Below, piece by piece: positions 38,154 through 58,770 of a stretch of DNA of 64,000 nucleotides; the first letter of the stretch is position 1; every line of letters begins with the position of its first letter. Below the pieces are notes generated by a model. The model made no database searches. It saw nothing but the letters and a program-made list of their open reading frames with translations, and was not told where the DNA came from. Source of the stretch: Chloroflexia bacterium. Lineage in GTDB: Bacteria; Chloroflexota; Chloroflexia; DTKN01. A program made the position numbers and the translations under genes. The DNA is taken from contig DAOTVY010000064.1 of assembly GCA_034436115.1 (NCBI GenBank), positions 21,235-85,234 of the forward strand, read 5' to 3'.

Positions 38154-38182
38154 TTGACGAAATTCGTCATTTGTGGTAGACT
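38154..38182 (+). promoter_or_regulatory. Putative hydrogenase-operon promoter TTGACG-17-TAGACT (extended TGg), overlapped by the 15-bp palindrome TGACGAAATTCGTCA (38155-38169)
   Basis: Hexamers with 17-nt spacing. A perfect 7-1-7 palindrome covers the -35 and spacer. Confidence 0.5.
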
Positions 38183-38321
38183 TCACACGGAACAGGGCCT
38201 CAGCGAGGAGGTGGTGTTAGATGGAAGTCCAGGACAATGGTGTCTTGGCAGATGGACACAGTGCTTTCCCGCCGCGGAAAGTAACTGTGGTTTTTTTGTG
38301 AGTCCAGGTTAGGAGGCGATC

Positions 38322-39356
38322 ATGGCCCTTTTTGTTCTGCCCAAGGAACGGGTGGCCGACTGGGTGCGGCAGTTGATGGCCGAGTACGAGGTCGTGGGTC
38401 CAGTGGCGAAGGACGGTGCTTTCGTTTTCGCTCCATTGGAGGGGCCGGAAGCGCTCCGGCTGGACTACCCGATCACCCTGCAGTCGCCCAAGGCGTTCCT
38501 CTTTCCTCCTGAAGAGACGCTGCTGCGCTTCCGCCGTGGCAGCCCTCCGGAGGTCGAGCCGGTGCGCGACGCGCGTCCGCGCGTCCTCTTCGGTGTCCAT
38601 CCCTGCGACTTGAACGCGACCTGGCTGTTGGACCTGGCTTTCTCGCAGGATACGCTGGATACCCCCTATATGGAGCGGCGTGGGCGCACCCTGATCGTCG
38701 GTCTGGACTGCCTGAAGCCGTGCGATGCCCATTCGTTTTGCAAGAGCATGGGGTCGCTTGAGGTGACCGGCGGGTACGATCTCTTCCTGACGGACCTGGG
38801 CGATGCCTACGCGGTCGAGGTGGGCACCGATGCGGGCCAGGCGTTGCTCGAGCGTGCGGAGGGAGCCCAGCCAGCTACGGAGGCGGATATCGCTCGCCTG
38901 AACCTGGTTCTGAGCGAGAAATGGCCCCGCTTCCCCTTGCGGCTCGACCTGGACCCCAAGGACTTGGCGAGCATCATGGAGCTCACCTACGATAGCCCGC
39001 TCTGGGAGGAACTGGCCCAGAAGTGTCTGGGGTGCGGCTCCTGCAACCTGGTCTGCCCGACCTGCTACTGCTTCGACGTTCAGGACCGGCTGGGGCTGGA
39101 CCTGCGCTCGGGCAAGCGGGTACGGCTGTGGGACGGCTGTATGCTGCGCGACTTTGCACGCGTGGCTTCGGGAGAGAACTTTCGCGAGCACCGTTCTGCC
39201 CGCCTACGCCACCGTTTCTACCGCAAGGGGAAGTACCTCCTGGAGGACTATGGGCGCGTCGGGTGTGTGGGCTGCGGACGGTGCGTGCGCGCCTGCCTGG
39301 TGAAGATCGACCCGGTGGAGGTCTTTAACGCCCTGAAGGCTGCCTGCACCGTCTAA
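38322..39356 (+). CDS. hydB: Cytoplasmic [NiFe]-hydrogenase (group 3b/sulfhydrogenase-like) beta subunit, 4Fe-4S protein
   Basis: VLFGVHPCDLNA...CLGCGSCNLVCPTCYCFD...CVGCGRCVRACLVKID. The first gene of a beta-gamma-delta-alpha operon. Confidence 0.7.
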   Translation: MALFVLPKERVADWVRQLMAEYEVVGPVAKDGAFVFAPLEGPEALRLDYPITLQSPKAFLFPPEETLLRFRRGSPPEVEPVRDARPRVLFGVHPCDLNATWLLDLAFSQDTLDTPYMERRGRTLIVGLDCLKPCDAHSFCKSMGSLEVTGGYDLFLTDLGDAYAVEVGTDAGQALLERAEGAQPATEADIARLNLVLSEKWPRFPLRLDLDPKDLASIMELTYDSPLWEELAQKCLGCGSCNLVCPTCYCFDVQDRLGLDLRSGKRVRLWDGCMLRDFARVASGENFREHRSARLRHRFYRKGKYLLEDYGRVGCVGCGRCVRACLVKIDPVEVFNALKAACTV

Positions 39357-39394
39357 GCGGTCGATCGTTAGGCCGGATTGAGGAGGAGCCGACC

Positions 39395-40237
39395 ATGGTC
39401 GAACAAACCCCAACGAGCGGATCGCTGTACCTGCCCCGTATGGCGGAGGTGCTCCGCATCCGGACGCTCACGGAGAAGGAGAAGGTATTCACCCTCCGCC
39501 TGGAACAGGGCCAGTCGCTGGCCCACCAGCCGGGGCAGTTTGTAGAAGTTTCCCTTTTCGGCATCGGCGAGGCCCCGATCTCCGTTTCCTCTTCTCCCAC
39601 GCGCAACGGCACCTTCGAGCTGTGTGTGCGTGCGGTGGGCGATGTGACTAATGCCATGCACCGCCTCCAGGAGGGAGACTGGGTTGGGATTCGGGGGCCT
39701 TTTGGGCACGGCTTTCCGGTGGCCAAGATGCGCGGCAAGGACCTCTTGTTTGCCGCCGGGGGCCTGGGGTTGGCCCCGTTGCGCTCGCTGATCCAGTTTG
39801 TCTTGGATGAGCGGCCGTCCTTCGGGCGGGTGATCATCCTCTACGGCGCGCGCAACCCCGGGGAGCTCCTCTTCCGCGACGAGCTGGAAGAGTGGGCGCA
39901 CCGAAACGACGTGGAGTTCCACCTCACGGTCGACCGCGCGGATGCCTCCTGGACCGGCCACGTCGGCGTGATCACTACCCTCTTCCCGAAGGTCGCGGTG
40001 AATCCCCGGAGCACCGTAGCCGTGACCTGTGGACCGCCGATCATGTACCGGTTCGTGTTGATCGAGCTTTTGGCCAAGGGCCTGCCGGAGAACCAGATCT
40101 ACCTCTCCCTGGAGCGCCGGATGAAGTGTGGGGTCGGGAAATGCGGCCACTGCCAGATCAACGGCGTCTACTGCTGCCAGGAGGGGCCTGTCTTCTCGTA
40201 CGCCCAGGTGAAAGGGCTGAAGGAGGCGATCGGATGA
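39395..40237 (+). CDS. hydG: Hydrogenase gamma subunit: FAD/NAD(P)-binding oxidoreductase with C-terminal [2Fe-2S] (sulfhydrogenase gamma/anaerobic sulfite reductase B-like)
   Basis: Ferredoxin-reductase-type fold (RPSFGRVIILYGARNPGELLF) and C-terminal CGVGKCGHCQINGVYCCQEGPVF. Confidence 0.8.
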   Translation: MVEQTPTSGSLYLPRMAEVLRIRTLTEKEKVFTLRLEQGQSLAHQPGQFVEVSLFGIGEAPISVSSSPTRNGTFELCVRAVGDVTNAMHRLQEGDWVGIRGPFGHGFPVAKMRGKDLLFAAGGLGLAPLRSLIQFVLDERPSFGRVIILYGARNPGELLFRDELEEWAHRNDVEFHLTVDRADASWTGHVGVITTLFPKVAVNPRSTVAVTCGPPIMYRFVLIELLAKGLPENQIYLSLERRMKCGVGKCGHCQINGVYCCQEGPVFSYAQVKGLKEAIG

Positions 40238-41010
40238 AGCCGAAGGTGGCCGTCTTCGAGTTCGGCTGCTGCGAGGGATGCCAGCTGCAGATCGTGAACC
40301 TGGAGGAGGAGCTGCTCGACCTCCTTGGCGTGGTGGAGGTGGTAACGTGGCGGGAAGCGATGAGCGAGCAGTCCGAGACCTTTGACATCGCCCTGGTCGA
40401 AGGCTCGATCACCCGTGAGGAGGAGATCGAGCGGCTGCGCGGCATCCGAGAGCGGGCGAAGGTGCTCGTGGCCATCGGCGCCTGTGCTTGCATCGGTGGC
40501 ATCAACTGCATGAAGAACCGCTTCGACCTGGAAGAGGTTCGTCGCTACGTCTACGGCGAGCACGCCCAATGGTTCGATACCATCGCCACCCGGCCCCTGA
40601 GTGCGGTCGTCCCGGTGGATGCCGAGGTGCCGGGTTGCCCCATCAACCGCCAGGAACTGGTGGAGATCGTCAAAGCCTTGCTCTTGGGGAAGAGGCCGGC
40701 CTTGCCCACTTATGCCGTCTGCGTCGAGTGCAAGCGCCGCAACAACGTGTGCGTCTTTGACCGGGGCCTGGTGTGCCTGGGGCCGGTCACGCGCGCCGGT
40801 TGCAACGCCATCTGCCCCACTTACGGCAACCGCTGCGTCGGCTGCCGGGGGCTGGTGCCCGACCCGAACCTGAACTCCCATCGTGAGGTGCTCGCCCAGC
40901 ATGGCCTTTCTCCGGAGGACATCCTGCGCTTCTTCCACCTGTACGGGGGGTGCCTGCCGGAGATCGGCTGCCTGCAGGGGGCCTTGGAAGCATCTGGAGG
41001 ACGGCCATGA
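40234..41010 (+). CDS. hydD: [NiFe]-hydrogenase small (delta) subunit
   Basis: MKPKVAVFEFGCCEGCQLQIVN, the NuoB/20-kDa-like proximal cluster ligands. ATGA overlap with the gamma gene. Confidence 0.85.
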   Translation: MKPKVAVFEFGCCEGCQLQIVNLEEELLDLLGVVEVVTWREAMSEQSETFDIALVEGSITREEEIERLRGIRERAKVLVAIGACACIGGINCMKNRFDLEEVRRYVYGEHAQWFDTIATRPLSAVVPVDAEVPGCPINRQELVEIVKALLLGKRPALPTYAVCVECKRRNNVCVFDRGLVCLGPVTRAGCNAICPTYGNRCVGCRGLVPDPNLNSHREVLAQHGLSPEDILRFFHLYGGCLPEIGCLQGALEASGGRP

Positions 41011-42308
41011 AGGATGGGACGATCCACGTCCATTACCTGACCCGTGTGGAAGGCCACGGCAACATCCACGTGGAGGTGGAAGGCGGGGCCCTGAAGGCGT
41101 TCCGCTGGGAGATCCCCGAAGCCCCCCGGTTCTTCGAGGCGATGGTCCGAGGACAGAGCTATGCGGACGTGGCCCATATTGTCTCGCGCATCTGCGGCAT
41201 CTGCTCCATTGGACACACCCTCTGCGCCCTGCAGGCGGTCGAGAACGCGCTGGGCGTGAGGCCTTCCGAGCAGACGGTGCTGCTGCGCAAACTGCTCCTC
41301 CACGGGGAGACGGTGCAGAGCCATGTCCTCCACGCGGGCTACCTTGCAGCGCCCGACTTTTTCGGGGTACCCAGCGTGGTCCCTCTGGTGGCCAGCCATC
41401 GCGAGGCCGTGCTCACGATCGTACGGCTCCATCGCCTGGCCAACGAGTGGTGTGACCAGATCGGCGGTCGGACGACACATCCGATCACCCCGGTGGTGAA
41501 CGGGTGGACCCGGCTTCCGACCCCCGAGGAGCTGGCCAACCTGCGTGCGCGCATCGAGGCCGGGATGGCCGACGCCTGGGCATTGGTGGAGATCTTTCGC
41601 ACGCTTGACATCCCCGATTTTCAGCGTCCTACCGAGTACATTGCCCTGAAACACCCCGAGGAGTATGCGTTCTACGAGGGAGTCATCGCTTCCACCGACG
41701 GCGACACGACCGCCGTGCCGGATTACCGGCAAAAAGTGCACGAGTTCGTTGTGCCGTATTCCACCTCGAAGCGAGCCCGGGCGAACCGCAACTCCTTTGC
41801 TGTGGGAGCCCTGGCGCGTTTCAACAACAACGCCGAGCAGCTTTCCCCCCAGGCGAAAAAGGCTGCAGAAGCGCTCGGGCTGCGTCCGATTTGCACCAAC
41901 CCGTTTCTGAACACCGTGGCTCAGGTGGTGGAAGTCGTGCATGCGCTGGAAGATAGCCTGCGCTTGATCGACCTGCTCCTGGCACGCGGGATCGAGCCGG
42001 AGGTACCTTGGGTGCAGGTGCGCGCAGGCCGGGGTGTGGGGGCGGTCGAGGTGCCCCGGGGCATCCTGTTCCACGAGTATACCCTGGACGAGACCGGGCA
42101 CGTGGTGGACGCGAACATGATCATCCCCACCGGCCAGAACCATCAGAATATCGAGGACGACATGGCCGTCCTGATCCCGCAGATCCTGGACCGGCCGGAG
42201 GAGGAGATCCGCCTGCGTCTGGAGATGCTCGTGCGCGCCTACGACCCCTGCATCTCCTGTTCCACCCACCTGCTGCACCTGGAGCTACGCGGAGGAAAAT
42301 CGCGGTGA
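41007..42308 (+). CDS. hydA: [NiFe]-hydrogenase large (alpha) subunit
   Basis: N-terminal RICGICSIGHTLCA (L1 CxxC) and C-terminal DPCISCSTHLLH (L2 DPCxxC). ATGA overlap with the small subunit. Confidence 0.9.
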   Translation: MKDGTIHVHYLTRVEGHGNIHVEVEGGALKAFRWEIPEAPRFFEAMVRGQSYADVAHIVSRICGICSIGHTLCALQAVENALGVRPSEQTVLLRKLLLHGETVQSHVLHAGYLAAPDFFGVPSVVPLVASHREAVLTIVRLHRLANEWCDQIGGRTTHPITPVVNGWTRLPTPEELANLRARIEAGMADAWALVEIFRTLDIPDFQRPTEYIALKHPEEYAFYEGVIASTDGDTTAVPDYRQKVHEFVVPYSTSKRARANRNSFAVGALARFNNNAEQLSPQAKKAAEALGLRPICTNPFLNTVAQVVEVVHALEDSLRLIDLLLARGIEPEVPWVQVRAGRGVGAVEVPRGILFHEYTLDETGHVVDANMIIPTGQNHQNIEDDMAVLIPQILDRPEEEIRLRLEMLVRAYDPCISCSTHLLHLELRGGKSR

Positions 42309-42799
42309 CGGACCGGCGACGTGCCCCGGTGCTCGTCCTGGGCCTGGGGAATCCCTACTGGGGCGACGATGGCGTAGGGCAGGCGGCGTTGGAAGCGCTC
42401 TCCCGCCGATCGTTGCCCCCTGGGGTGGAAATACGCGATGGCGGCACTGGCGGCCTGCTCCTCCTGGATGTGATCGCCGACCGCGAACACCTGCTGGTGA
42501 TCGACGCCGCCGATTTCGGCGAGGCACCGGGCACGGTTCGTGACTTTTCGCCAGAGGAGGCTGGCCTCTGTCGCGCCGATCGGCCCCTTTCGTTCCACCA
42601 GGCGGGGCTGGCCGAAGTGCTGGATCTTGCGCGCAAGCTCGGCATGGCTCCCCGGAACGTGCACTTATGGGTCGTCCAGCCGGGCCGGTTGGGCCCGGGA
42701 CGTGGGTTGAGTGACCCGGTCCAGGCAGCCCTGCCTGGGTTGGTGGATTCGGTGTGCCGCGCGCTCGGGGCGTTGCTTCCCGAGGCGGCGCGCGTTTGA
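42305..42799 (+). CDS. Hydrogenase maturation endopeptidase (HycI/HoxW family)
   Basis: VLVLGLGNPYWGDDGVGQAA...LLVIDAADFG. A GTG start overlaps the large-subunit stop (GTGA). Confidence 0.8.
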   Translation: MTDRRRAPVLVLGLGNPYWGDDGVGQAALEALSRRSLPPGVEIRDGGTGGLLLLDVIADREHLLVIDAADFGEAPGTVRDFSPEEAGLCRADRPLSFHQAGLAEVLDLARKLGMAPRNVHLWVVQPGRLGPGRGLSDPVQAALPGLVDSVCRALGALLPEAARV

Positions 42800-42811
42800 G
42801 GAGGATAGCCG

Positions 42812-43216
42812 ATGCCAAAGAAGATCCTCGTGGTGGATGACGACCCGGACACGGTCGAAGTGATCCGCCTGACCCTGGAGAGCGCAGGCTATGAGGTAGT
42901 CAGCGCAGCGAGCGGGGAGGAAGGGCTGCGTCGGGTGGTGCAGGAAAAGCCGGACCTCATCATCCTGGACGTGATGATGGATACCACGACCGAGGGGTTC
43001 CACGTTAGCCTGCAGCTGCGGAGCCCTGACCCGGCCTCGCCCTACGCCGATTTCCGGCAGATCCCCATCCTGATGCTCACCGCGATCCACACGACCACGC
43101 CGCTGCGCTTTGCTCCGGATGCGGACTACCTGCCGGTGGACGAATTTGTGGAAAAGCCGATCGCCCCGGAGGCGCTTCTCGCCAAGGTAGAGGCGCTGCT
43201 TGCGGGGAAGAAGTGA
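42812..43216 (+). CDS. Stand-alone response-regulator receiver (CheY-like) protein
   Basis: KILVVDDDPDTVEVIRLTL...DLIILDVMMD...KPI. No output domain. Confidence 0.8.
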   Translation: MPKKILVVDDDPDTVEVIRLTLESAGYEVVSAASGEEGLRRVVQEKPDLIILDVMMDTTTEGFHVSLQLRSPDPASPYADFRQIPILMLTAIHTTTPLRFAPDADYLPVDEFVEKPIAPEALLAKVEALLAGKK

Positions 43217-43697
43217 GGCACGAGCTTTGGGCAAGATCCAGATCGGCGGCATCCTGCAATTTCGGGATCTGGCCTTGATCCAAGTGCTGGGGCTTCCGCA
43301 GAGCGCAGCCGTGGCCACGTTGTTGCGAGCGCTGGGCGACCGCGGGATCCCGGCTCAGGCGGTCGTCCAGTGCCAGGAATCGGGCGGCCGCTACGCCTTG
43401 GCCTTCACCGTGGCCGAGGTGCACCGTGAGGAAGCCCGGGCGATCGTGGAAGAGCTGGCCCGCCGCGGCGGTGCGTGCGAGGTGACCGTGCGCTCGCCGG
43501 TCGGGATGGTGGCCGTCTTCGGGCCCCATTTCCGGGATCGGCCGGCGATCGCAGGTACGATGTTCAGCGCCCTGGTTGCAGCCGAGGTGGAGGTGTTGGC
43601 CATCAGCACCTCGATCTCGACCGTGGCCGGTGTCGTTGTCGCCGAGGAGATGGACCGCGCGGTCGCCATCCTGCGGGCGACGTTTGAGCTCCCATAG
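43200..43697 (+). CDS. Stand-alone ACT-domain protein (aspartokinase regulatory-domain-like)
   Basis: Two ACT-like segments (GKIQIGGILQ...; VGMVAVFGPHFRDRPAIAGTMFSALVAAEVEVLAISTSISTVAGVV). The start codon is uncertain and overlaps the upstream gene end. Confidence 0.55.
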   Translation: MRGRSEARALGKIQIGGILQFRDLALIQVLGLPQSAAVATLLRALGDRGIPAQAVVQCQESGGRYALAFTVAEVHREEARAIVEELARRGGACEVTVRSPVGMVAVFGPHFRDRPAIAGTMFSALVAAEVEVLAISTSISTVAGVVVAEEMDRAVAILRATFELP

Positions 43698-43713
43698 CTT
43701 GCGGCCGGCCTTG

Positions 43714-43722
43714 TGGTAGAAT
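43714..43722 (+). promoter_or_regulatory. Extended -10 element TGgTAGAAT upstream of hdrC
   Basis: A perfect extended -10 about 68 nt upstream of the hdrC ATG (43790), with no good -35. Confidence 0.4.
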
Positions 43723-48146: not shown

Positions 48147-49016
48147 TTGCCCGGCGGCATGGACCGAGACAGGAGGCTGTGCTTGAGCACGAGCGATGAC
48201 ATCCGTCGCGTTGCACGAGAACTGCTGGAAAAAGGGGAGGTGGCGCGCATCTACGGGTATGCGGAGGGCCGGCGGGGCCAGGTGCGCCCCTTTATCGCCC
48301 GTACGCCCGCGGAGGCGGAACGCCTTCTCTTCGATCGAAGGTGTGTCCACAACCTGGCCCTCTATCTCCTGGACCTGAAGGCAGAGGGCGCCGAGGCGCC
48401 CCGCGTGGGCGTGGTCATGAAGCCGTGCGATGCGCGCGCGCTGAACGTGCTGGTGCTGGAGCACCAGCTCGACCGTGCCCAGGTGCATGTGATCGGCGTG
48501 CCCTGCAACGGTGTGGAGGGAAAACGCGCCTGTGGAACGTGCCCAGACCGCACCCCGCCGACCTACGATACTCTCGTTGGCGAGGTGCCGACGGAAGAAC
48601 CCGGCCAGGCAGCGGAGGACGAACTCGCCCGTCTGCTCGCCCTCCCTCCCGAGGAGCGCCGGCGCTTCTGGGCGGAGCAGTTCGCGCGCTGCATCCGGTG
48701 TTACGCTTGCCGGCAGGTCTGCCCGATGTGTTACTGCGAGGTCTGCATCGCCGAGAAACTCGACCCGCCCTGGGAGAGCATCGCCATTGCCCCGTCGGAG
48801 AACGAGTTTTACCACGTGTTGCGGGGCTACCACCTGATCGGGCGCTGCATCGAGTGCGGCGAATGTGAACGGGTGTGCCCGATGGGCATCCCGGTGTTTC
48901 TCTACCAGCGTTATCTGGCGGAGGAAGTGCGCCGAACCTTCGATTTCCGACCCGGTATGGATGCGGAGACGCTGGCGCCGTTCATGACGTTCCGCAAGGA
49001 GGAACTGGAAGGGTAA
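48147..49016 (+). CDS. FrhB/FdhB-like iron-sulfur (flavo)protein, FlxB-like
   Basis: VVMKPCDARALNVLVLE...VIGVPCNG N-terminal domain, plus CIRCYACRQVCPMCYC and CIECGECERVCPMG. Confidence 0.6.
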   Translation: MPGGMDRDRRLCLSTSDDIRRVARELLEKGEVARIYGYAEGRRGQVRPFIARTPAEAERLLFDRRCVHNLALYLLDLKAEGAEAPRVGVVMKPCDARALNVLVLEHQLDRAQVHVIGVPCNGVEGKRACGTCPDRTPPTYDTLVGEVPTEEPGQAAEDELARLLALPPEERRRFWAEQFARCIRCYACRQVCPMCYCEVCIAEKLDPPWESIAIAPSENEFYHVLRGYHLIGRCIECGECERVCPMGIPVFLYQRYLAEEVRRTFDFRPGMDAETLAPFMTFRKEELEG

Positions 49017-49042: not shown

Positions 49043-50086
49043 ATGCCCCAACGGCTGCTGAACCCCGAAGAACTGCTTGCATGGGTGGACCGCTTGCTCC
49101 CGGGCTACCGGGTCGTGGCTCCGGTGCGGGAGGGCGAGGGACGGTTCTTCCTTCGCCCGATCGGAGGCGCCCAGGAGATGGACCTTTCGGTGACCCGGAC
49201 GGTAAACAGCCTCAAGGAGTACTTCTTCCCCCCCACGGAGGCGATCGTGCAGATCCGCCGCGGGAAGACGGCGGTGCGCCTGGAGGTGCCCGTTCCGGAA
49301 GAGCGGCAGCTCCTCTTTGCCGTCCGCCCCTGCGATGCCGCCGCGTTGGCCTCTATGGACGCGCTTTTCCTGGGGGATCCGGCCGACCCCTACTATGGCG
49401 CGCGCCGCCGGCAGAGCGTGCTCGTGGGGCTGGCCTGTTTGGAAGTACCCACGCCCGAGTGCTTCTGCACGACCACCGGCGGCTCGCCCATCGGGACGGC
49501 AAACCTGGACCTGATCCTCTACCGGGTACCCGAGGGGTACATCGTGGAGGCTCTGACCCCGCGGGGGGAGGAGCTGTTCCAGGAGGCCTCCGGCCGACCG
49601 GTCGAGCCACCCTTCCGCCCCCAGGCGCCGGGGCTTCCGGCCTATCCTTGCCCGCCCCAGGAGGACTGGATCCGCGTCTTCACCGATCCCCTGTGGGAAG
49701 AGCTAGGCGAGCGTTGCCTGGGATGCAAGATCTGTACCTACGTCTGCCCGACCTGCTACTGCTTCGACATCCGCGACCGGGGGGCCGGGGGACGGGTCGA
49801 GCGCCTGCGTGCCTGGGATGCCTGCACTTCCAAGCACTACTCCGTCGAAGCCAGCGGCCACGACCCGCGGCCGACGCGGGGGACGCGGCTTCGCAACCGT
49901 TTCTGTCACAAATACTACTACTTCCCGTGGCGCTACCAGGGTACCCTCCTTTGCTCGGGATGCGGCCGCTGTGTGGCGGCCTGTCCGGTGAACATCGACC
50001 TGACGGAAGTCCTGGAAGAAGTGGCTACCCGATCCCGGGTGGATCGCTCAAGCGGGCGCAACCAAGCACAGGGATTGGACCATTAG
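49043..50086 (+). CDS. 4Fe-4S protein paralogous to hydrogenase beta subunit (FlxC-like)
   Basis: FAVRPCDAAAL...CLGCKICTYVCPTCYCFD...CSGCGRCVAACPVNID, with domain order matching the 38322 gene. Confidence 0.7.
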   Translation: MPQRLLNPEELLAWVDRLLPGYRVVAPVREGEGRFFLRPIGGAQEMDLSVTRTVNSLKEYFFPPTEAIVQIRRGKTAVRLEVPVPEERQLLFAVRPCDAAALASMDALFLGDPADPYYGARRRQSVLVGLACLEVPTPECFCTTTGGSPIGTANLDLILYRVPEGYIVEALTPRGEELFQEASGRPVEPPFRPQAPGLPAYPCPPQEDWIRVFTDPLWEELGERCLGCKICTYVCPTCYCFDIRDRGAGGRVERLRAWDACTSKHYSVEASGHDPRPTRGTRLRNRFCHKYYYFPWRYQGTLLCSGCGRCVAACPVNIDLTEVLEEVATRSRVDRSSGRNQAQGLDH

Positions 50087-50121
50087 GACAAAAAGGTGCC
50101 TGGCAGAGGGGAGGTGGTCCG

Positions 50122-50511
50122 GTGACCACTCGTGCGCAAGACTGGCTCCGTCAGGCCGTACGGGATCTGGAGCACGCCATCGACTCGCAGGGGTTGGGGC
50201 GACACGAATGGGCCTGCTTTGCCGCACATCAGGCCGCCGAAAAGGCCGTGAAGGCCCTCCATTTGCACCATGGTCAGGAGGCCTGGGGGCACCTGGTGGC
50301 CAGGCTCCTTCGAGAGTTGCCCGGGGCGGTCATAGTTCCTGCGATGCTCGTCGAGCAGGCTCGCGTGCTGGATACGTTTTACATCCCCACCCGCTATCCC
50401 AACAGCCATCCGGAGGGGCCGCCCTTCGAGCATTATGGCCCTCTGCAGAGCGAGGAGGCGATCCGTTATGCCCGTGCGATCGTTGAGTTCGTCCGTTCTC
50501 AAATGGCCTGA
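50122..50511 (+). CDS. HEPN-domain protein (putative toxin of a HEPN/MNT pair)
   Basis: A GTG start follows GGGGAGGTGG. Rx4H motif in TRYPNSH. An all-helical ~129-aa protein. Confidence 0.7.
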   Translation: MTTRAQDWLRQAVRDLEHAIDSQGLGRHEWACFAAHQAAEKAVKALHLHHGQEAWGHLVARLLRELPGAVIVPAMLVEQARVLDTFYIPTRYPNSHPEGPPFEHYGPLQSEEAIRYARAIVEFVRSQMA

Positions 50512-50860
50512 TGCCCGGGAGGTCGTGGCCGCGGTACAGCGTTGGGCGGAGCGTAAAGCCCGGGAACACCCGGAGGTCGTGCGGATCGGGTACCTGGGTT
50601 CTTACGCGCGCGGCGATTGGGGTGTCGGCAGCGATGTGGATCTGCTGATCCTTGTCGAGCATTCTGGTGTTCCCTTCGAAGGCCGCGGTGCCCAATGGGC
50701 ACCGGACGAACTACCCGTTCCGGCCGACGTGCTGGTCTATACGCTGGCCGAGTGGCAATCCCTTCCCCGGGAGGGGCGGTTCTATCGCACCGTGATGCGC
50801 GAGGCGGTGTGGGTTTGGGAGCGCGGCACCGGAGAATCCCGGGGGCAACCCGAGGAGTGA
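50468..50860 (+). CDS. Minimal nucleotidyltransferase (MNT; putative antitoxin partner of HEPN)
   Basis: GSYARGDWGVGSDVDLLIL is the GS-x9-DxD polymerase-beta-like NTase motif. It overlaps the HEPN gene 3' end. Confidence 0.7.
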   Translation: MPVRSLSSSVLKWPDAREVVAAVQRWAERKAREHPEVVRIGYLGSYARGDWGVGSDVDLLILVEHSGVPFEGRGAQWAPDELPVPADVLVYTLAEWQSLPREGRFYRTVMREAVWVWERGTGESRGQPEE

Positions 50861-50876: not shown

Positions 50877-51707
50877 ATGTCCAATCCGTTCTTGCCCTTT
50901 GTCGGTACCCTGACTGAAGTGCGTGACCTGGCGCTCGGCATCCGGTTGCTGCGGGTGCGGCTGGAGGACGAGGCCGGCCGGGCGGCCTTTGCGGACTATC
51001 GGCCGGGGCAGTTCGCCTTCCTTTCCGCCTTTGGCGTGGGCGAAGTGCCCTTTGGGTTGGCATCGACGCCGGCGCGGAGCGCGGAATTGGAGTTTGCTGT
51101 CGCCCGCGTGGGCACGGTGACCTCTGCCCTGCACAACCTGGAGGTAGGGGCGCCGGTGGGCGTGCGCGGGCCTATGGGCAACTCCTTCCCGATGGAGGAG
51201 TTCCGCGGCCGGAACCTGGTGATCATCGGCGGGGGCATCGGTTTTGCACCGCTTCGCCCGGTGATCCAGTACGCGCTCGACCACCGCGCCGACTACGGCC
51301 ACCTCACCATCCTGGCCGCGGCCCGCGCCCCCAACCTCCTGGTGTTCCGCGAGGAGTACGAAGAGTGGGCCTCGGCGCCCGATACCGAGTTGCACGTGAC
51401 CGTGGACGTGGGGGACGAGACCTGGACGGGGAACGTAGGCCTGGTAACCGAACTGCAGGCCAAGGTGGCTCCGTCGCCGGATAACGCCATCGCGATCACC
51501 TGTGGCCCGCCGATCATGATCAAGTTTGTGGTACAGCTGTTGCAGAAGCAGGGATTTGCCCCGGAGCAGATCTACACCACGCTCGAGATGAAGATGAAGT
51601 GCGGCCTGGGGAAATGTGGCCGCTGTAACATCGGCGAGCGCTACGTCTGTGTGGACGGGCCGGTCTTTAGCCACGCCCAGATCCTGCAGTTCATCGATTC
51701 CTTCTAG
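50877..51707 (+). CDS. FAD/NAD(P)-binding oxidoreductase with C-terminal [2Fe-2S], paralog of hydrogenase gamma (FlxA-like)
   Basis: Same architecture as the 39395 gene. The C-terminus is CGLGKCGRCNIGERYVCVDGPVF. Confidence 0.8.
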   Translation: MSNPFLPFVGTLTEVRDLALGIRLLRVRLEDEAGRAAFADYRPGQFAFLSAFGVGEVPFGLASTPARSAELEFAVARVGTVTSALHNLEVGAPVGVRGPMGNSFPMEEFRGRNLVIIGGGIGFAPLRPVIQYALDHRADYGHLTILAAARAPNLLVFREEYEEWASAPDTELHVTVDVGDETWTGNVGLVTELQAKVAPSPDNAIAITCGPPIMIKFVVQLLQKQGFAPEQIYTTLEMKMKCGLGKCGRCNIGERYVCVDGPVFSHAQILQFIDSF

Positions 51708-52047: not shown

Positions 52048-54207
52048 ATGCCGCGAGGGGAAATGTGCCCGGGTGAGGACCCCTATCCTCGACAGCTGTG
52101 GCTGCAGCAGCTTGAGTTCATCGTCAACCGGAGCCCTGCGGTTGCCTTCCTGTGGCGCGCCGAGCCGCGCTGGCCGGTAGAGTTCGTTTCCGAGAACGTG
52201 CGCCAGTTCGGTTATACGGTCGAGGAGTTCCTGTCCGGTTCCCTGCTCTACGGCGATATCATCCACCCGGACGATCTTCCACGCGTCGTGGATGAGGTGG
52301 AGCGCTATACCTGCGAGGGACGCAGCGAATTCCTTCAGGAGTACCGCATCTTGACCCGCTCGGGCGAGCTGCGCTGGGTGGACGACCATACCTGGGTGCG
52401 CCGTGGTCCGGACGGCCGCGTGACCCACTACCAGGGGATCGTTCTGGACATCACCGCCCGCAAGCAAGTCGAGTCCGAACTCCAGCGGGAACGGGATCTC
52501 GCGCGCACGCTGATCGAGGCCTCGCCGGCCTTTTTTGTGGCCATCGCTCCGGATGGCCGCACGATCGCCATGAACCGGACGATGCTCGAAGCGCTAGGCT
52601 ATAGGGCCGAAGAGGTGCAAGGGACCGACTACCTGAATACCTTTGTCCCCCTGGAGGACCGCCCCTTGCTGGCCCGCGTGTTTGAGCAGCTGGCGCAAGC
52701 GCGGGTGCCCACAGTCAACCAGAATCGGGTGCTCACCCGCGACGGACGGATGCTCTGGGTCGAATGGCATGGTACGCCGGTGCTGCGCGCGGATGGGACG
52801 CTGGACTATTTCTTCGGCCTCGGGATCGACGTCACCGAGCGCAAGAAGGCACAAGAGGAGCTCGAGCGACGCTACCGTACCTTAAGCCTGCTGAACCGTC
52901 TGGGCACGGCTCTGGGATCGACGCTGGAGCTGCCCGAGATCTACCGGATCGCCTACGAGCATGTTTCCCAGATGGTGGATTGCGCCAACTTTTGCATCTC
53001 GCTTTACGACCCGGCGGAGCGCGTGCTGCGGGCAGGCTTTGTACTGAGCGACGGCCAACCCTTGGACCCTTCCCTCTTTCCTCCGCTGCGGATCGAGGAA
53101 GGTGAGAGGCTCGCGGGGCGGGCGCGTGCGCTGCTCAGCGGGCAGGTGGAAATGGTGGAGGACCTGGAGCGAGCACGCGCTGCTGCGCGCCAGGCGGGGG
53201 AACCAGTGCACCTGGTGGGGGAGGGGGAGGAGCCGCTTTCGGCGGTCTATGTCCCGATGTGGGTCGCGGGGCAGGTGCTCGGCCTCCTGGAGCTGCAGAG
53301 CTACCGCCGGCACGCCTATCGCGAGGAGGATGTCGCCCTGCTTGCTCCGGTGGCCAATCAGATCGGGCTCGCCCTGGCCAACGCACGCCTCTACGAGCAG
53401 GTGCGCCAGCAGGCCCGCGAGCTGGAGCAACGGGTAGCGGAGCGCACGGCACAGTTGCAGGCGGCGAACCAGGAGCTGGAAGCCTTTACGTACACCGTCT
53501 CCCACGACCTGCGGGCCCCGCTGCGGGCCGTCGCGGGATTCTCGCGCCTTCTCGAGGAGGCCTACGGCGATCGCCTGGACGACAACGGGCGTCATTACCT
53601 GGACGAGATCCACAAGCAGGTGGGACACATGGAACGGCTGCTTTCCGGCCTCTTGGCGTTCTCCCGCCTGACCCGGCAGCCGCTGCGCTTGGAGACAGTT
53701 CCTTTGCGGGAGGTGGTGGAGTCGGCATGGCAGGAGCTCGCCCCGGAACGGGAGGGCCGGCAGGTCGAGCTGGTCGTGGGGGACCTCCCGGTTTGCCAGG
53801 GGGATCCGCTGTTGCTGCAGCAGCTCTTCGTCAACCTGCTTTCCAACGCCCTGAAGTTCACCCGGCCCCGCGAGGTGGCACGGATTGAGGTGGGTTGTAA
53901 GGAGATGGGCGCGCCGGGTGCCCCTGGGCAACCGGTGTTCTACGTTCGCGACAATGGCGTTGGTTTTGACATGCGCTACGCCAAGGGGTTGTTCGGCGTC
54001 TTTCAGCGGCTGCATCGGGAAGAAGAGTTCGAGGGGACGGGCGTGGGGCTGGCCATTGCGCGGCGGATTGTCCAGCGGCACGGGGGGGAGATCTGGGCAC
54101 AGGGGGAAGTAGGCCAAGGGGCGACCTTTTCCTTTACCCTGGGAGGTGAACACCATGTCAGCCATCGAGACGGCGGACATCCTGCTCGTGGAGGACAGAG
54201 AGAGTGA
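52048..54207 (+). CDS. Cytoplasmic sensor histidine kinase with two PAS domains, GAF, HisKA and HATPase_c
   Basis: H-box FTYTVSHDLRAPLRAVAGFSRLL, with N/G1/G2 boxes. No TM segments. Confidence 0.85.
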   Translation: MPRGEMCPGEDPYPRQLWLQQLEFIVNRSPAVAFLWRAEPRWPVEFVSENVRQFGYTVEEFLSGSLLYGDIIHPDDLPRVVDEVERYTCEGRSEFLQEYRILTRSGELRWVDDHTWVRRGPDGRVTHYQGIVLDITARKQVESELQRERDLARTLIEASPAFFVAIAPDGRTIAMNRTMLEALGYRAEEVQGTDYLNTFVPLEDRPLLARVFEQLAQARVPTVNQNRVLTRDGRMLWVEWHGTPVLRADGTLDYFFGLGIDVTERKKAQEELERRYRTLSLLNRLGTALGSTLELPEIYRIAYEHVSQMVDCANFCISLYDPAERVLRAGFVLSDGQPLDPSLFPPLRIEEGERLAGRARALLSGQVEMVEDLERARAAARQAGEPVHLVGEGEEPLSAVYVPMWVAGQVLGLLELQSYRRHAYREEDVALLAPVANQIGLALANARLYEQVRQQARELEQRVAERTAQLQAANQELEAFTYTVSHDLRAPLRAVAGFSRLLEEAYGDRLDDNGRHYLDEIHKQVGHMERLLSGLLAFSRLTRQPLRLETVPLREVVESAWQELAPEREGRQVELVVGDLPVCQGDPLLLQQLFVNLLSNALKFTRPREVARIEVGCKEMGAPGAPGQPVFYVRDNGVGFDMRYAKGLFGVFQRLHREEEFEGTGVGLAIARRIVQRHGGEIWAQGEVGQGATFSFTLGGEHHVSHRDGGHPARGGQRE

Positions 54208-54607
54208 TGCCGAACTTGCCCTCCGGGTATGGACACGGGAACGGTTGAGCGAGCGCGTTCGGGTCGCGCGCGACGGTCCGGAAGCCCTGGAGTACCTCTC
54301 GGCCTGTGCGGAGGCAAATGGGTTGCCGAGGGTGGTGGTATTGGACCTGAAGTTGCCCCGCATGCATGGCCTGGAGGTACTGCGTCGCATCCGCGAGGAC
54401 ATGCGCACCGTTTACCTCCCCGTGGTCGTGTTGAGTTCCTCCTCCGAAGAGGCCGACATCGCCGGGAGCTACCAGGCGGGCGCGAACAGCTATGTGGTGA
54501 AACCGGTGATCTACGATCGGTTCGCCGAGATCGTGCGCGAGGTAGGGCACTACTGGCTTTGCGTGAACCGGTTGCCTCGCCCGGAGTGGGCCCGCGGTCA
54601 GCGCTGA
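54155..54607 (+). CDS. Single-domain response-regulator receiver
   Basis: ATG (MSAIET) 6 nt after GGGAGGTG. ILLVEDRESDAELA...VVVLDLKLP...KPV. Confidence 0.8.
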   Translation: MSAIETADILLVEDRESDAELALRVWTRERLSERVRVARDGPEALEYLSACAEANGLPRVVVLDLKLPRMHGLEVLRRIREDMRTVYLPVVVLSSSSEEADIAGSYQAGANSYVVKPVIYDRFAEIVREVGHYWLCVNRLPRPEWARGQR

Positions 54608-54630
54608 TCTTGGTGGCTCGGAGGTGTGGA

Positions 54631-56031
54631 ATGGCCACTCCCTTACGGGTGCTGATTCTAGAGGATCGGGAGGCGGATGCGGAGCTTCTGGCGCTGGAGC
54701 TGAGCCGGGCCGGCTTTGCCCCCGAGTGGACCCGGGTAAGCAGCGAAGCGGAGTACCTGGCCGAGTTGGAGAAGGGCTATGATGTGATCCTGGCCGACTA
54801 CCGCCTGCCCCAGTTCGACGGGCTACAGGCGCTTCAGTTGATGCAGGAGCGCGGCCTGGATATCCCCTTTGTGCTGGTCTCGGGGACGATCGGTGAGGAT
54901 CTGGCCGTGGAGGCGATGAAGCGGGGAGCGGCCGACTACCTGCTCAAGGACCGGCTGGCACGCCTGGGAGCGGCGGTTGCCCGCGCTCTAGAAGAAAAGC
55001 AACTGCGCGAGGCCAGGCAGCGAGCGGAGGCATCGTTGCGCGAGGCCGAGGCGCGCTACCGCACCCTGTTCGAGGGGATGCCCATCGGGCTATACCGCAC
55101 CAGTCCAGACGGCCGTATCCTGGAGGTGAACGCGGCGCTGGCCCAGATGCTGGGGTTGCCGGACCGGGAAAGCGTGTTCGCGCACTACCGGCGTGCCGAG
55201 GAATTCTACGTCCATCCGGAAGAACGGGCGCGGTGGAAGGCTTGGATCGAGCGCACGGGTGTGGTTCGGCAGTATGTGGCGCAGTGGCGGCGGGCCGACG
55301 GCTCGGCCATCTGGGTGAGGGAGAGCGCGCGGGCGATCCGCGACGGGCGGGGGGAGACGGTCTACTACGACGGTGCGGTGGAGGACATCACCGCGCTGGT
55401 GCTGGCGGAGGAGGAGCGGCAGCGCACCCTGGAGCGGCTGCGGCGGATGGTGGAGGGGACGGTGCGCGCCCTGTCGGCCACGGCGGAGTATCGGGATCCC
55501 TACACGGCTGGCCACCAGCGACGGGTGGCGCGGCTGGCGGCGGCGATCGCCCGTGAGATGGGGCTTTCCCCCGAACAGGTCGAAGGGGTGGAGGTGGCCG
55601 GCATCGTGCACGACATCGGCAAATCCACCGTGCCTACGGAGATCCTGAGCAAACCCGGGCGCCTTTCGCCCGAGGAGATGGCCCTGGTACGGATGCATCC
55701 GAGGGCGAGCTTCGAGATCTTGCGCAAGATCGAGTTCCCCTGGCCGGTGGCGCTCGTTTCCCTGCAGCACCACGAACGGCTCGACGGTTCGGGCTATCCG
55801 GAGGGACTGGCTGGGGAACAGATCCTCCTGGAAGCGCGCATCCTGGCGGTGGCCGACGTGGTGGAGGCGATGTCCTCCCACCGTCCTTACCGGGCAGCGC
55901 TGGGGCTGGAGCGAGCTTTGGAGGAAGTCCGGACCCAGCGCGGCATCCTCTTCGAGCCGCAGGCTGTGGACGCCTGCCTTCGCCTCTTTGCGACGGGGTT
56001 CAAGCTCGATGAGCCCAACGGGCGGGACTGA
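54631..56031 (+). CDS. Response regulator REC-PAS-HD-GYP (putative c-di-GMP phosphodiesterase)
   Basis: VLILEDREADAELL receiver, a PAS core and the HD-GYP signature HDIGKS...HHERLDGSGYPEGL. Confidence 0.8.
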   Translation: MATPLRVLILEDREADAELLALELSRAGFAPEWTRVSSEAEYLAELEKGYDVILADYRLPQFDGLQALQLMQERGLDIPFVLVSGTIGEDLAVEAMKRGAADYLLKDRLARLGAAVARALEEKQLREARQRAEASLREAEARYRTLFEGMPIGLYRTSPDGRILEVNAALAQMLGLPDRESVFAHYRRAEEFYVHPEERARWKAWIERTGVVRQYVAQWRRADGSAIWVRESARAIRDGRGETVYYDGAVEDITALVLAEEERQRTLERLRRMVEGTVRALSATAEYRDPYTAGHQRRVARLAAAIAREMGLSPEQVEGVEVAGIVHDIGKSTVPTEILSKPGRLSPEEMALVRMHPRASFEILRKIEFPWPVALVSLQHHERLDGSGYPEGLAGEQILLEARILAVADVVEAMSSHRPYRAALGLERALEEVRTQRGILFEPQAVDACLRLFATGFKLDEPNGRD

Positions 56032-56043
56032 CGGAATCCGTCA
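56029..56043. promoter_or_regulatory. Perfect 15-bp palindrome TGACGGAATCCGTCA (copy 1 of 3)
   Basis: Begins with the stop codon of the HD-GYP gene. It lies 47 nt upstream of the TTGACA-17-TAACAT promoter (56090-56118). Confidence 0.5.
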
Positions 56044-56089
56044 ATATTGGTCTCTATGTTGCCCCTTTGGGTCGTTATTTTGCATCTGC

Positions 56090-56118
56090 TTGACAGATTT
56101 CGTTTCCTATGCTAACAT
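56090..56118 (+). promoter_or_regulatory. Promoter TTGACA-17-TAACAT for the AsnC-REC / GcvH-kinase genes
   Basis: Consensus -35 with 17-nt spacing in an AT-rich tract. Confidence 0.55.
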
Positions 56119-56159
56119 GAGTTCAGATATCGTGACCGGTCGCACAAGGAAGTGCCCGA

Positions 56160-57017
56160 ATGTATCGCCTGGATGCCCTGGACCGCCAGATCATTCTACA
56201 TTTGCAGCGCGACGGGCGTATTCCCTATGTAGAGTTAGCTCGTTTGGTAGGGGTAAGTGAGGCTACTGTCCGGAGGCGGGTAGAGCGTCTGATTGCGGAA
56301 GGGGTGATCGAGGTTGTCGCCTGTGTCGAGCCGCGCAAGGTGGGGCTGGGAGTCGAAGCGCTGGTCTACCTCCAGGCAGAGTTGGACAAGCTGACGCACA
56401 TCGGCCAGACCCTGGCGGCCATGCCGGAGGTGCGGGAGGTGATTTACACTTCCGGGGCGCACGATCTGGTGCTGCGGGTGGCGCTGGCCTCGAACGATGA
56501 CCTTTTGCCCTTCCTGACCCGCCGGGTGGCGACGATTCCGGGAGTCAAGGCGACCCAAACCTCCTACGTTCTGCAGACGGAAAAGCACATCCACGATTGG
56601 CAGCTGCCGGAGCGGCCGGTGGCTCCGCAGCCATCTCAGGCCCGGCCCTTGATCCTGGTGGTGGATGACGACGCCGACTTTTGTGCTGCGGCCAGCATGG
56701 TGCTGGAAGCTGAGGGCTATCAAGTGATGGCCTCCTGCAATGGGCGAGAGGCAAAGGCCATATTGCAGGAGCAGACGCCAGCGCTGATCCTGCTGGATCT
56801 CATGATGGAGACGCCACTGGCCGGGCTGGAGGTATTGCAGGCCGTACGGGACGACCCACGTCTCTGTGGGATCCCTGTGCTGGCCATTTCGGCTATTCGC
56901 TCGAGCGAATGGGCAAGCGCCATCCCATCGCCGGAACAGCTGCCTTTCGACGGCTTTGTGGACAAGCCGATCGAGCCAGGGCTGCTCCTGGAGAAGGTGC
57001 ACCGACTGGTCGGCTAG
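56160..57017 (+). CDS. Lrp/AsnC-family transcriptional regulator (HTH + RAM domain) fused to a C-terminal receiver-like domain
   Basis: The N-terminus LDRQIILHLQRDGRIPYVELARLVGVSEATVRRRV is an AsnC HTH. The C-terminus LILVVDDDADF...ILLDLMME...KPI is REC-like. Confidence 0.75.
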   Translation: MYRLDALDRQIILHLQRDGRIPYVELARLVGVSEATVRRRVERLIAEGVIEVVACVEPRKVGLGVEALVYLQAELDKLTHIGQTLAAMPEVREVIYTSGAHDLVLRVALASNDDLLPFLTRRVATIPGVKATQTSYVLQTEKHIHDWQLPERPVAPQPSQARPLILVVDDDADFCAAASMVLEAEGYQVMASCNGREAKAILQEQTPALILLDLMMETPLAGLEVLQAVRDDPRLCGIPVLAISAIRSSEWASAIPSPEQLPFDGFVDKPIEPGLLLEKVHRLVG

Positions 57018-57035
57018 CTGCCCCTGGGGAAAGCG

Positions 57036-58754
57036 GTGCAAATCGAGCGCTACCATTTCCCGGAGGATCGTTTCTACGACCGCCAGCACAATTGGGTGCG
57101 AATCGAAGACGGCCTGGTCGTTCAGGGATTGTCCGACTATGCCCGCCAGTCCAGAGGGCCGGTGCTTTGCCTGGATCTGCCTCGCCCTGGGCGATGGGTC
57201 GCGCGGGGTGAACCGTTGACAGTTCTGGAGGCGGAGCAAGGGATCATCCGCGTCCTTGCGGCTGTCAGCGGCGAGGTGGTGGCGATCAACGAGCAGCTAC
57301 GCGACAATGCCGGCCTGGTGTACGAGGATCCCTACGAAGCGGGCTGGCTGGTGAAACTCTGTCCCACCTCTCCCGAGGAGCTCGCGCAGTTGACCCGCCC
57401 GGACGATCCGGCATTCAAGGAGTGGTTCCTGGTCTGCCTTTCTGGGGAGATCTCGCGCCAACTGGGCCGCCCGGAACGGGAGGTGCTCTCCCTGCGGCGG
57501 GACCTGGAGCGTGCCTATCATCGGCTGGAAACGCTTTACCAGATCGGCCGGGCCACGACCTCGACGATCCATCTGGAGCAAGTGCTGCAAATGGTCGTTC
57601 GTCTGACTGCCGAGGCGCTTGACGCCAAGGGATGCTCCATTCGCCTTCTGGACGATAGTGGCCAAATCTTGCGGATTGTAGCGGCCTGGGGTCTGAGTGA
57701 TCAGTATCTGCAGAAGGGACCGGTGGAGGTACGGCACAGCCTGATCGATCAGGAAGCACTCCGGGGCAAGCCGGTGATCGTGCTGGAAGCGCCTTTGGAT
57801 CCCCGGTTCCAGTACCCGGAAGAGATCGAGCGAGAGGGCATCTGTTCCGTCCTGTGCTGTCCGCTGATGGTACGGGGGCAAGCCATTGGCGTGATCCGGA
57901 TCTACAGCGCGGCCTGCTATCGCTACGGCCAGGAGGAAGCCGACTTCTTGATGACGATTGCCAGCGAGGTGGCGGTGGCGATCGCGAACGCGATGGCCTA
58001 CCGGAAGCTGGAAGAGATCGACCGGGCCAAGTCCCAGTTTGTCCTCACGGTTACCCATGAGCTTCGCTCGCCTGTGGCCACGGTACAGAGCCTCCTGCGG
58101 GTCATTTCGGGCGGGTATGCAGGCCAGGTATCCTCCAAGCAAAAGGAACTGATCGAGCGGGCCGAACGCCGGATCCTCTTCCTGCAGCAGCTGATCGACG
58201 ACCTTCTGGACCTCGCTGCGGGGAAAACGGAACATCTCACGGAGACCCCGCGACCGGTGACGGTGAATCCGGTTGTGACCAAAGTGGTCGCCCAATTGCG
58301 CCCGGTGGCCGAGGAAAAGTCGTTGGATCTGCGGGTCTATGTACCCCACGAGGCCCTTTCCGTCCTCGCTGTAGAGGACGGAATGGAGCGCATCGTGGTC
58401 AACCTGGTGGGCAATGCGATCAAGTACACGCTTCCCGGGGGGCGCGTCGAGGTCACCCTGGAGCGCCGCGGGAACGAGGCCGTGTTGATCGTGTCCGATA
58501 CCGGCATTGGTATCCCGCAGGATGCGCTGCCCCATCTGTTCGAGGAGTTCTTTCGGGCGGAGAATGCCCGGGCGATCGAGCGGGAAGGTACCGGCCTGGG
58601 CCTTTCGATCGTCAAGAACCTGGTCGAGCGGTACGGAGGCAGGATCGCAGTGGAAAGCCAGCTGGGCCAAGGGTCGACCTTCACCGTGCGCTTCCCGCTC
58701 CTGGGGACCGGAACGGTCGATGGCGGAATTCGTAAGGAAACGTCATTATCATGA
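57036..58754 (+). CDS. Histidine kinase with N-terminal glycine-cleavage H-protein (GcvH)-like domain lacking the lipoyl-lysine, followed by GAF, HisKA and HATPase_c
   Basis: The N-terminus YDRQHNWVRIEDGLVVQGLSDYA...AVSGEVVAINEQL...EDPYEAGWLVKL matches the GcvH fold, with ESVK replaced by EAEQ. H-box TVTHELRSPVATV. Confidence 0.75.
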   Translation: MQIERYHFPEDRFYDRQHNWVRIEDGLVVQGLSDYARQSRGPVLCLDLPRPGRWVARGEPLTVLEAEQGIIRVLAAVSGEVVAINEQLRDNAGLVYEDPYEAGWLVKLCPTSPEELAQLTRPDDPAFKEWFLVCLSGEISRQLGRPEREVLSLRRDLERAYHRLETLYQIGRATTSTIHLEQVLQMVVRLTAEALDAKGCSIRLLDDSGQILRIVAAWGLSDQYLQKGPVEVRHSLIDQEALRGKPVIVLEAPLDPRFQYPEEIEREGICSVLCCPLMVRGQAIGVIRIYSAACYRYGQEEADFLMTIASEVAVAIANAMAYRKLEEIDRAKSQFVLTVTHELRSPVATVQSLLRVISGGYAGQVSSKQKELIERAERRILFLQQLIDDLLDLAAGKTEHLTETPRPVTVNPVVTKVVAQLRPVAEEKSLDLRVYVPHEALSVLAVEDGMERIVVNLVGNAIKYTLPGGRVEVTLERRGNEAVLIVSDTGIGIPQDALPHLFEEFFRAENARAIEREGTGLGLSIVKNLVERYGGRIAVESQLGQGSTFTVRFPLLGTGTVDGGIRKETSLS

Positions 58755-58770
58755 CGGAATCCGTCTTTTT
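58752..58770 (+). terminator. TGACGGAATCCGTC palindrome (copy 2 of 3) followed by TTTTT; a weak intrinsic terminator or operator
   Basis: Begins with the kinase stop codon. A 5-6-bp stem (GACGG/CCGTC) plus a T5 run. Confidence 0.45.

Follow-up and report, generated by a model that had tools for sequence, protein, structure and literature searches.

The 64,000-nucleotide stretch analyzed here, referred to as the window, comes from a Chloroflexia bacterium (assembly GCA_034436115.1, contig DAOTVY010000064.1) and contains three short, related palindromes. They lie at the predicted promoters of a group-3 [NiFe] hydrogenase operon, of a gene for an AsnC-type protein with an appended receiver (REC) domain, hereafter asnC-REC, which lies downstream of the hydrogenase operon, and of an operon of HdrD-, HdrC- and HdrB-like genes (the Hdr-like operon). 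Below we examine these palindromes as candidate binding sites of a transcriptional regulator. Positions relative to promoters use transcription start sites estimated from the −10 hexamers alone, and match scores are those of a position weight matrix (PWM) built from 32 boxes. The palindromes, the boxes related to them and the surrounding promoters and genes are the following (HTH, helix-turn-helix).

38155-38169, no strand assigned: palindrome copy 1, TGACGAAATTCGTCA, an exact 15-bp palindrome containing the box GACGAAATTCGTC at 38156-38168; 19.7 bits
56029-56043, no strand assigned: palindrome copy 2, TGACGGAATCCGTCA, an exact 15-bp palindrome; 19.3 bits
58752-58766, no strand assigned: palindrome copy 3, reading TGACGGAATCCGTCT, palindromic only over the core GACGGAATCCGTC at 58753-58765; 19.3 bits
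56061-56073, no strand assigned: middle box of the asnC-REC promoter, degenerate, GCCCCTTTGGGTC, 31 bp upstream of the proximal box
56092-56104, no strand assigned: proximal box of the asnC-REC promoter, GACAGATTTCGTT, overlapping the −35 hexamer, centre at about −27; 17.2 bits
58722-58734, no strand assigned: distal box of the Hdr-like array, GGCGGAATTCGTA, inside the 3' end of the kinase gene, centre at about −99; 15.0 bits
38154-38182, plus strand: predicted sigma-70-type promoter of the hydrogenase operon, TTGACG-17-TAGACT with TG; position conserved in loci L091 and L093-L096
56090-56118, plus strand: predicted asnC-REC promoter, TTGACA-17-TAACAT
58792-58820, plus strand: predicted promoter of the HdrD-like/HdrC/HdrB-like operon, TTGACA-17-TATGAT with an extended −10; spacer conserved in orthologues
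38322-39356, plus strand: hydrogenase operon gene 1, for the Fer4_22 beta-type subunit (Pfam)
56160-57017, plus strand: regulator candidate asnC-REC, with AsnC-type HTH (PF13404), RAM (PF01037, AsnC_trans_reg) and C-terminal receiver (PF00072, E=2.5e-16)
57036-58754, plus strand: partner histidine kinase with GcvH-like, GAF, HisKA and HATPase domains (Pfam)
58857-60209, plus strand: HdrD-like gene with CCG and 4Fe-4S domains, at the head of the downstream target operon

After the Fer4_22 gene, the hydrogenase operon continues with genes for a NAD-binding protein, the small and large NiFe subunits, HycI, REC, ACT, HdrC, HdrB, HdrA and MvhD (Pfam). The genes 3' of the regulator-kinase pair are HdrD-like, HdrC-like and HdrB-like, followed by CBS-HATPase and DRTGG genes. 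For the HdrD-like gene we adopted the ATG at 58857 as the start, which is in the frame of the listed open reading frame (ORF) 58809-60209, and the gene call in the orthologous locus L081 starts at the equivalent ATG.

The first-pass annotation of this DNA described three exact 15-bp palindromes, each fused to the stop codon of the preceding gene. Copies 1 and 2 are indeed exact over 15 bp, whereas the palindrome of copy 3 spans 13 bp. In the window the 15-mer pattern has two matches against 0.00 expected, the pattern TGACG-N5-CGTCA has two against 0.03, and the 13-mer core with at most one mismatch is matched at the three palindrome sites only, against 0.46 expected. The fusion to a stop codon holds for copies 2 and 3, where the TGA is the genuine stop of the HD-GYP response-regulator ORF (54229-56031) and of the GcvH-kinase ORF (57036-58754), respectively. 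It does not hold for copy 1: the DUF92 ORF (37324-38151; Pfam E=4.9e-66) stops at 38149-38151, six bases ahead of the palindrome, and the TGA of copy 1 is an in-frame triplet two codons past that stop. In the orthologous loci the fusion is kept in L089, and the kinase stop lies elsewhere in L081, L084 and L090. The fusion is incidental and is not conserved among orthologues.

The promoter placements given for the palindromes were confirmed. Copy 1 overlaps the TTGACG-17-TAGACT of the hydrogenase promoter, its box centred at about −27 and lying over the spacer and the −35 hexamer. Copy 2 ends 46 nt upstream of the TTGACA-17-TAACAT of the asnC-REC promoter and is centred there at about −89. Copy 3 ends 25 nt upstream of the TTGACA-17-TATGAT of the Hdr-like promoter, is centred there at about −68, and is followed by a run of five T (T5).

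The palindromes belong to arrays of 13-bp boxes and are the strongest boxes in them. The boxes have the consensus GACGRAWTYCGYC, are usually preceded by T and are spaced 30-31 bp centre to centre (three helical turns). There are three boxes at the asnC-REC promoter, two at the Hdr-like promoter and one at the hydrogenase promoter. In the asnC-REC array, copy 2 takes the distal place (box 3), 62 bp from the proximal box, and copy 3 is the proximal member of the Hdr-like pair, 31 bp from the distal box at 58722-58734. The three copies are real and non-random, and they are only part of larger phased arrays. The earlier statement that they occur nowhere else in the window is correct for exact copies, but weaker boxes of the same family are present at 56092-56104 and 58722-58734. 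A third box, overlapping the −35 hexamer, was sought at the Hdr-like promoter and was not found; the proximal box there lies 41-47 bp from the −35 hexamer.

To follow the boxes across related genomes, we used loci carrying asnC-REC orthologues of 66-80% protein identity (L081-L090, L174) and of 43-48% identity (L001, L171, L172, L173). A contig profile search with the family alignment was dominated by receiver-domain patterns and returned nearly exclusively unrelated REC proteins, L001 being the only true orthologue; the closest named relatives are proteins from Chloroflexota metagenome-assembled genomes. Synteny in these loci comprises the regulator-kinase pair followed by HdrCB-like, DRTGG, CBS, PHP and NuoEF-like genes. 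Phylogenetic footprinting, a check suggested by the first-pass annotation, located the arrays at the corresponding promoters in 10 of 11 orthologous loci (43-80% protein identity), with position and spacing conserved despite the divergence of the intergenic DNA around them. When the promoters are anchored at the −35 TTGAC, a box begins at the G of TTGAC, a second is found 31 bp upstream, and there is usually a third 61-63 bp upstream. The proximal box has the same register in 11 of 11 orthologous asnC-REC promoters. The middle box, degenerate in the window, is the best conserved in the orthologues (GATGGAATCCGTC, GGCGGAATCCGCC, GCCGAAATTCGTC and similar sequences at the same spot), and equivalents of copy 2 occur at 61-63 bp in L081, L084, L087, L088, L174 and L172.

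The phasing was assayed with a pattern defined from the three window palindromes only. In 10 of 12 asnC-REC promoters, the upstream sequence that matched it best was separated from the proximal box by 31 or 61-63 bp. The mean profile of matches has a sharp peak at 31 bp (9.08/13, against a background of 4.02 ± 0.82) and a second one at 61-62 bp. Additionally, the loci held out of the PWM display the same layout (L174, boxes at 9874/9904/9935; L172, boxes at 5894/5957 and 6878/6909). Boxes orthologous to copy 3 are present in L081 (12598), L084 (12643), L089 (12593), L090 (5912) and L172 (6909), and the 31-bp pair of the Hdr-like promoter is found also in L081, L089, L090 and L172, while L084 has a single box. 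At the hydrogenase promoter of L096, a locus of a related organism from the same metagenome as L082, TGACGAATTTCGTCA lies 9 nt upstream of the −35 hexamer.

Scanning with the PWM at a threshold of ≥17 bits yielded 4 matches in the window, where 0.15 are expected. In all fetched loci together (2.06 Mb) the same threshold gave 19 matches, with 12 at orthologous promoters and approximately 7 in unrelated DNA (∼1.87 Mb); inside the individual orthologous loci of 20 kb, matches were confined to these promoters. At ≥13 bits the window contains 8 matches against ∼3 expected, and those at 11208, 15450 and 52324 (14-16 bits) were not accepted as boxes, being within chance expectation. Two box-like matches inside genes, at window 48195 and L174 6710, were also rejected as operators: both coincide with one set of conserved codons (D-[DE]-I-R-R-V) in homologous proteins and thus reflect coding conservation.

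The half-sites had been described earlier as CRE-like. The cAMP response element (CRE) has the 8-bp consensus TGACGTCA, and CRP/FNR-type sites are 5-6-5 palindromes such as TGTGA-N6-TCACA. The geometry of the boxes is 5-3-5 with an A/T centre, and the resemblance is superficial. Instead, the boxes fit the 13-bp form abcdeWWWedcba of sites for Lrp/AsnC proteins, also called feast/famine regulatory proteins (FFRP) (PMC2715240), as in GACGA-AAT-TCGTC, GACGG-AAT-CCGTC and, in L001, TGCGA-TTT-TCGCA. The centre (AAT or ATT) is A/T-only: among the 32 boxes of the PWM, position 6 is A in 28, and positions 7 and 8 are A/T and T, respectively, in all 32. Lrp-type targets consist of clusters of imperfect palindromes two or three helical turns apart, and most members of the family autoregulate (PMC2995911). 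The 30-31 bp spacing seen at 10 out of 12 asnC-REC and at 5 Hdr-like promoters conforms to such clusters. The proximal box, which covers the −35 of the asnC-REC promoter in all loci examined, has a position consistent with autoregulation.

The protein is the only Lrp-type gene product encoded in the 64-kb window. Published contacts pair Tyr/Phe24, Glu35 and Arg39 with C-G-A at c, d and e, and Ser34/Ala36/Thr37 with T/G at a and A/T at b (PMC2715240). By ungapped alignment (FL11 numbering), asnC-REC has Tyr24, Ser34, Glu35, Ala36, Thr37 and Arg39, which are conserved in its family and agree with those of Ptr2, LysM and TvFL3 where the C-G-A core is said to be specified. Because Tyr24, Glu35 and Arg39 go with C-G-A, the core of the box fits the protein, and the outer positions fit approximately. 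In L001, the protein has Ala34 and the boxes shift to TGCGA...TCGCA.

Ptr2, an activator from Methanocaldococcus jannaschii with the consensus GGACGA[AAA/TTT]TCGTCC, has the same bases G-A-C-G-A at abcde, an A/T centre, and Tyr24, Ser34, Glu35 and Arg39 in common with asnC-REC (PMC2715240), and its targets carry a regularly spaced pair of sites upstream of the promoter (PMC2995911). However, Ptr2 is archaeal, has Ser36/Ser37, lacks a receiver and acts on recruitment of the TATA-binding protein, whereas the asnC-REC system is bacterial, with sigma-70-type promoters and Ala36/Thr37. TvFL3, FL10 and FL11 similarly share the 13-bp abcdeWWWedcba site with an AAT/ATT centre. The variant TvFL3[G36A] has Ser34, Glu35, Ala36, Thr37 and Arg39, and TACGAWWWTCGTA and GACGAWWWTCGTC are its best and second-best SELEX sites, respectively (PMC2715240). 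The HTH and RAM fold of asnC-REC matches FL11/PH1519 (E ∼2e-23). Those proteins respond to amino acids through RAM, whereas asnC-REC has an appended receiver and a co-transcribed histidine kinase. Ss-LrpB and E. coli Lrp likewise place several imperfect palindromes on one DNA face, two or three turns apart, in their own control regions; their boxes differ (YAGHAWATTWTDCTR for E. coli Lrp and TTGCAAWWWTTGCAA for Ss-LrpB), and the targets here are Hdr-like and hydrogenase operons and not amino-acid metabolism.

The receiver of asnC-REC has the canonical acidic pocket, Asp and Lys, with D169-D171, D213, K269 and P270 invariant or nearly so. The kinase gene adjoins the regulator gene in all orthologues of 66-80% identity. 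Similar to OmpR, NarL and NtrC response regulators, asnC-REC thus combines a canonical receiver with an adjacent histidine kinase, but the order is reversed, with the DNA-binding part N-terminal and REC C-terminal, and the output is an Lrp/AsnC HTH and RAM. The GcvH-like domain of the kinase (57036-57440) has no lipoyl lysine in any of the eight orthologues (L081, L084, L087-L090, L174 and the window): the GcvH motif ESVK reads E-[AT]-E-[QRA], with Gln, Arg or Ala in place of the Lys. Lipoylation of the domain is therefore excluded, and it is probably a sensor or interaction module. The HTH-RAM-REC family is rare, with ∼60 clusters at 90% identity and, among 1.84 billion representatives, ∼6 full-length clusters at 50% identity. 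In the literature searched, we found no description of an HTH-RAM-REC fusion with a GcvH-like/GAF kinase at Hdr and hydrogenase promoters.

Taken together, the footprinting, the 31-bp phasing, the Lrp/AsnC form of the sites and the contact residues support the earlier proposal that the palindromes serve a dimeric regulator, possibly the locally encoded AsnC-REC, as a shared operator. We consider it likely that the palindromes are operators of an Lrp/AsnC-family regulator, most probably the AsnC-REC protein encoded at 56160-57017, which most likely would control its own gene, the Hdr-like operon and the hydrogenase operon. Several observations weigh against this assignment. The contact code predicts T and not G at a (Thr37) and A and not G/A at e, so that the fit is inexact. 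A covariation of residue 36 with base b (Ser36 in L087 with a G-rich b) is suggestive but not clean, as G occurs too in L089 and L090, which have Ala36. Boxes are absent from the Hdr-like promoters of L088, L174 and L087. Of 6 close orthologous hydrogenase promoters, only 2 carry a box, which is absent in L091, L093, L094 and L095 and displaced in L096 (∼−53). Furthermore, the PWM is partly circular, some boxes having been chosen by similarity, a bias mitigated by the held-out loci and the window-only pattern. Lastly, Lrp paralogues were viewed in the 64-kb window, and box enrichment in the window and the fetched loci; paralogues elsewhere could compete.

Such a competitor, either an unlinked Lrp/AsnC paralogue or a dimeric HTH protein encoded outside the window, appears unlikely as the true owner of the boxes. 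A recognition loop of the form SE[AGS]TxR is a common feature of Lrp-family proteins, so a paralogue could share the specificity. However, the arrays accompany the asnC-REC gene, at its own promoter, across orthologues of 43-80% identity in different neighbourhoods, the window has no other Lrp-type gene, and in L001 altered a/b positions of the boxes coincide with Ala34 in the protein.

The palindromes had also been considered as short intrinsic terminator hairpins of the upstream genes, which we now regard as very improbable. This idea draws on the T5 after copy 3, on the detection of copies 1 and 3 by a permissive terminator scan, and on L081, where the box upstream of asnC-REC sits in ACGACG...CGTCG followed by TTTTAT. 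Yet the stems have 5-6 pairs with centroid energies of about −6 to −8 kcal/mol and z scores of +0.2 to −1.2, no better than shuffles, copies 1 and 2 have no U-tract, and the T5 of copy 3 is not conserved. Pairing is not maintained either: L084 and L089 keep the sequence but have lost the hairpin, and the arms are fully complementary in only 8 of 39 boxes. Watson-Crick counts for the arms of these 39 boxes equal the expectation for independent half-sites (26 against 24.5, 31 against 29.1 and 26 against 26.0), indicating that the palindromy arises from two half-sites matching one consensus, as for a dimeric protein, and not from selected pairing. Many boxes, moreover, lie over −35 hexamers or within arrays and not at gene ends. 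That the palindromes arose by chance or are neutral repeats without function, for example small palindromic repeat elements, would agree with there being only three exact copies in one window, but is hardly credible given that zero are expected by chance, that position and spacing are kept in diverged intergenic DNA, and that the three copies share no common flanking sequence.

With AsnC-REC as the regulator, dimers would bind each box through the HTH, and higher oligomers mediated by RAM would fill the phased boxes on one DNA face cooperatively, bridging 31 bp. Occupancy of the boxes near −27 would exclude RNA polymerase, resulting in autorepression and in repression of the hydrogenase operon, while the Hdr-like boxes at about −68 and −99 may serve in activation or in cooperative wrapping and repression. 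Phosphorylation of the receiver at Asp213 by the co-transcribed GcvH-like/GAF kinase would replace or supplement amino-acid control of oligomerization or affinity. The canonical receiver residues, together with a kinase that is always adjacent in the 66-80% identity group, suggest that phosphorylation probably tunes the oligomerization or affinity of the predicted regulator. Phased autoregulatory palindromes of Lrp/AsnC proteins are already well known. Whether AsnC-HTH/RAM/REC and the GcvH-like/GAF kinase form an undescribed type of two-component system, in which phosphorylation and not amino acids would switch oligomerization-dependent binding to the boxes, we judge on these sequences to be evenly balanced. 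If so, a redox or metabolite signal sensed by the kinase would be tied to the expression of Hdr-like, electron-bifurcating and [NiFe]-hydrogenase genes in anaerobic Chloroflexota. An Lrp module fused to a receiver would widen the known outputs of response regulators and would offer a natural system for the phosphorylation control of Lrp-type nucleoprotein assemblies. The box consensus, the 31-bp phasing and the three target promoters additionally provide a concrete cis-element and predicted regulon for an uncultured Chloroflexota lineage.

Other elements were observed at the same promoters. At the Hdr-like promoter, a direct repeat (ATTTGTCCCAGGAT / AAATGTCCCGGAT) at 58776-58809 flanks the −35 hexamer and may be the site of a second factor; the spacer CCCGGATTGTG is conserved in L081, L084 and L089. 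Between the −10 hexamer and the ribosome-binding site of asnC-REC, several orthologues carry the inverted repeat TTGTTCC-N4-GGCACAA, which resembles the Rex operator TTGTGAA-N4-TTCACAA and suggests a second, redox-responsive layer of control. It occurs at the following positions, and a weaker version, TCGTGACCGGTCGCACAA, is present at 56131-56148 of the window.

L084, 9966-9990: TTGTTCC-N4-GGCACAA repeat
L089, 9968-9990: TTGTTCC-N4-GGCACAA repeat
L090, 3176-3195: TTGTTCC-N4-GGCACAA repeat
L088, 9982-10000: TTGTTCC-N4-GGCACAA repeat
L174, 9972-9995: TTGTTCC-N4-GGCACAA repeat

At the hydrogenase promoter, TTGTGGTAGACTTCACAC (38171-38188) spans the −10 region, 2 nt after copy 1, and is the sole match in the window to the Rex consensus at ≤3 mismatches; TGTGGTAnnATTCAC is conserved in L093, L094 and L096. 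A Rex-like reading was not adopted, because the match has 3 mismatches and at least one match occurs in 41% of shuffles, which is not significant alone, and a literature search for a Chloroflexi Rex motif returned nothing useful. Further downstream, in the hydrogenase 5' leader (38225-38300; L091-L095), the motif CCUGGACAAUGGnGUCUUGGC precedes a long terminator hairpin that shows compensatory changes and has a U-run. The leader is conserved in five orthologues, which are 77-80% identical, and is a candidate for a transcription attenuator or a riboswitch-like element; no Rfam family was found for it or elsewhere in the window. Its first small hairpin, with an AAUGGN hexaloop, may resemble an ANTAR target.

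In the neighbourhood, ORFs with HEPN and nucleotidyltransferase domains (49081-50860) lie between the Fer4 gene (48147-49016) and a gene for a NAD-binding oxidoreductase (50877-51707). They look toxin-antitoxin-like and are a possible insertion; L088 and L174 have a Fer4_22 gene in their place. Upstream, at 31331-33235, lies a gene for RACo, the reductive activator of corrinoid iron-sulfur protein, and in orthologous loci genes for MTHFR and a NAD-linked formate dehydrogenase adjoin the regulator. These neighbours place the predicted regulon in a Wood-Ljungdahl-type context, in a lineage that carries Wood-Ljungdahl, Hdr and hydrogenase genes.

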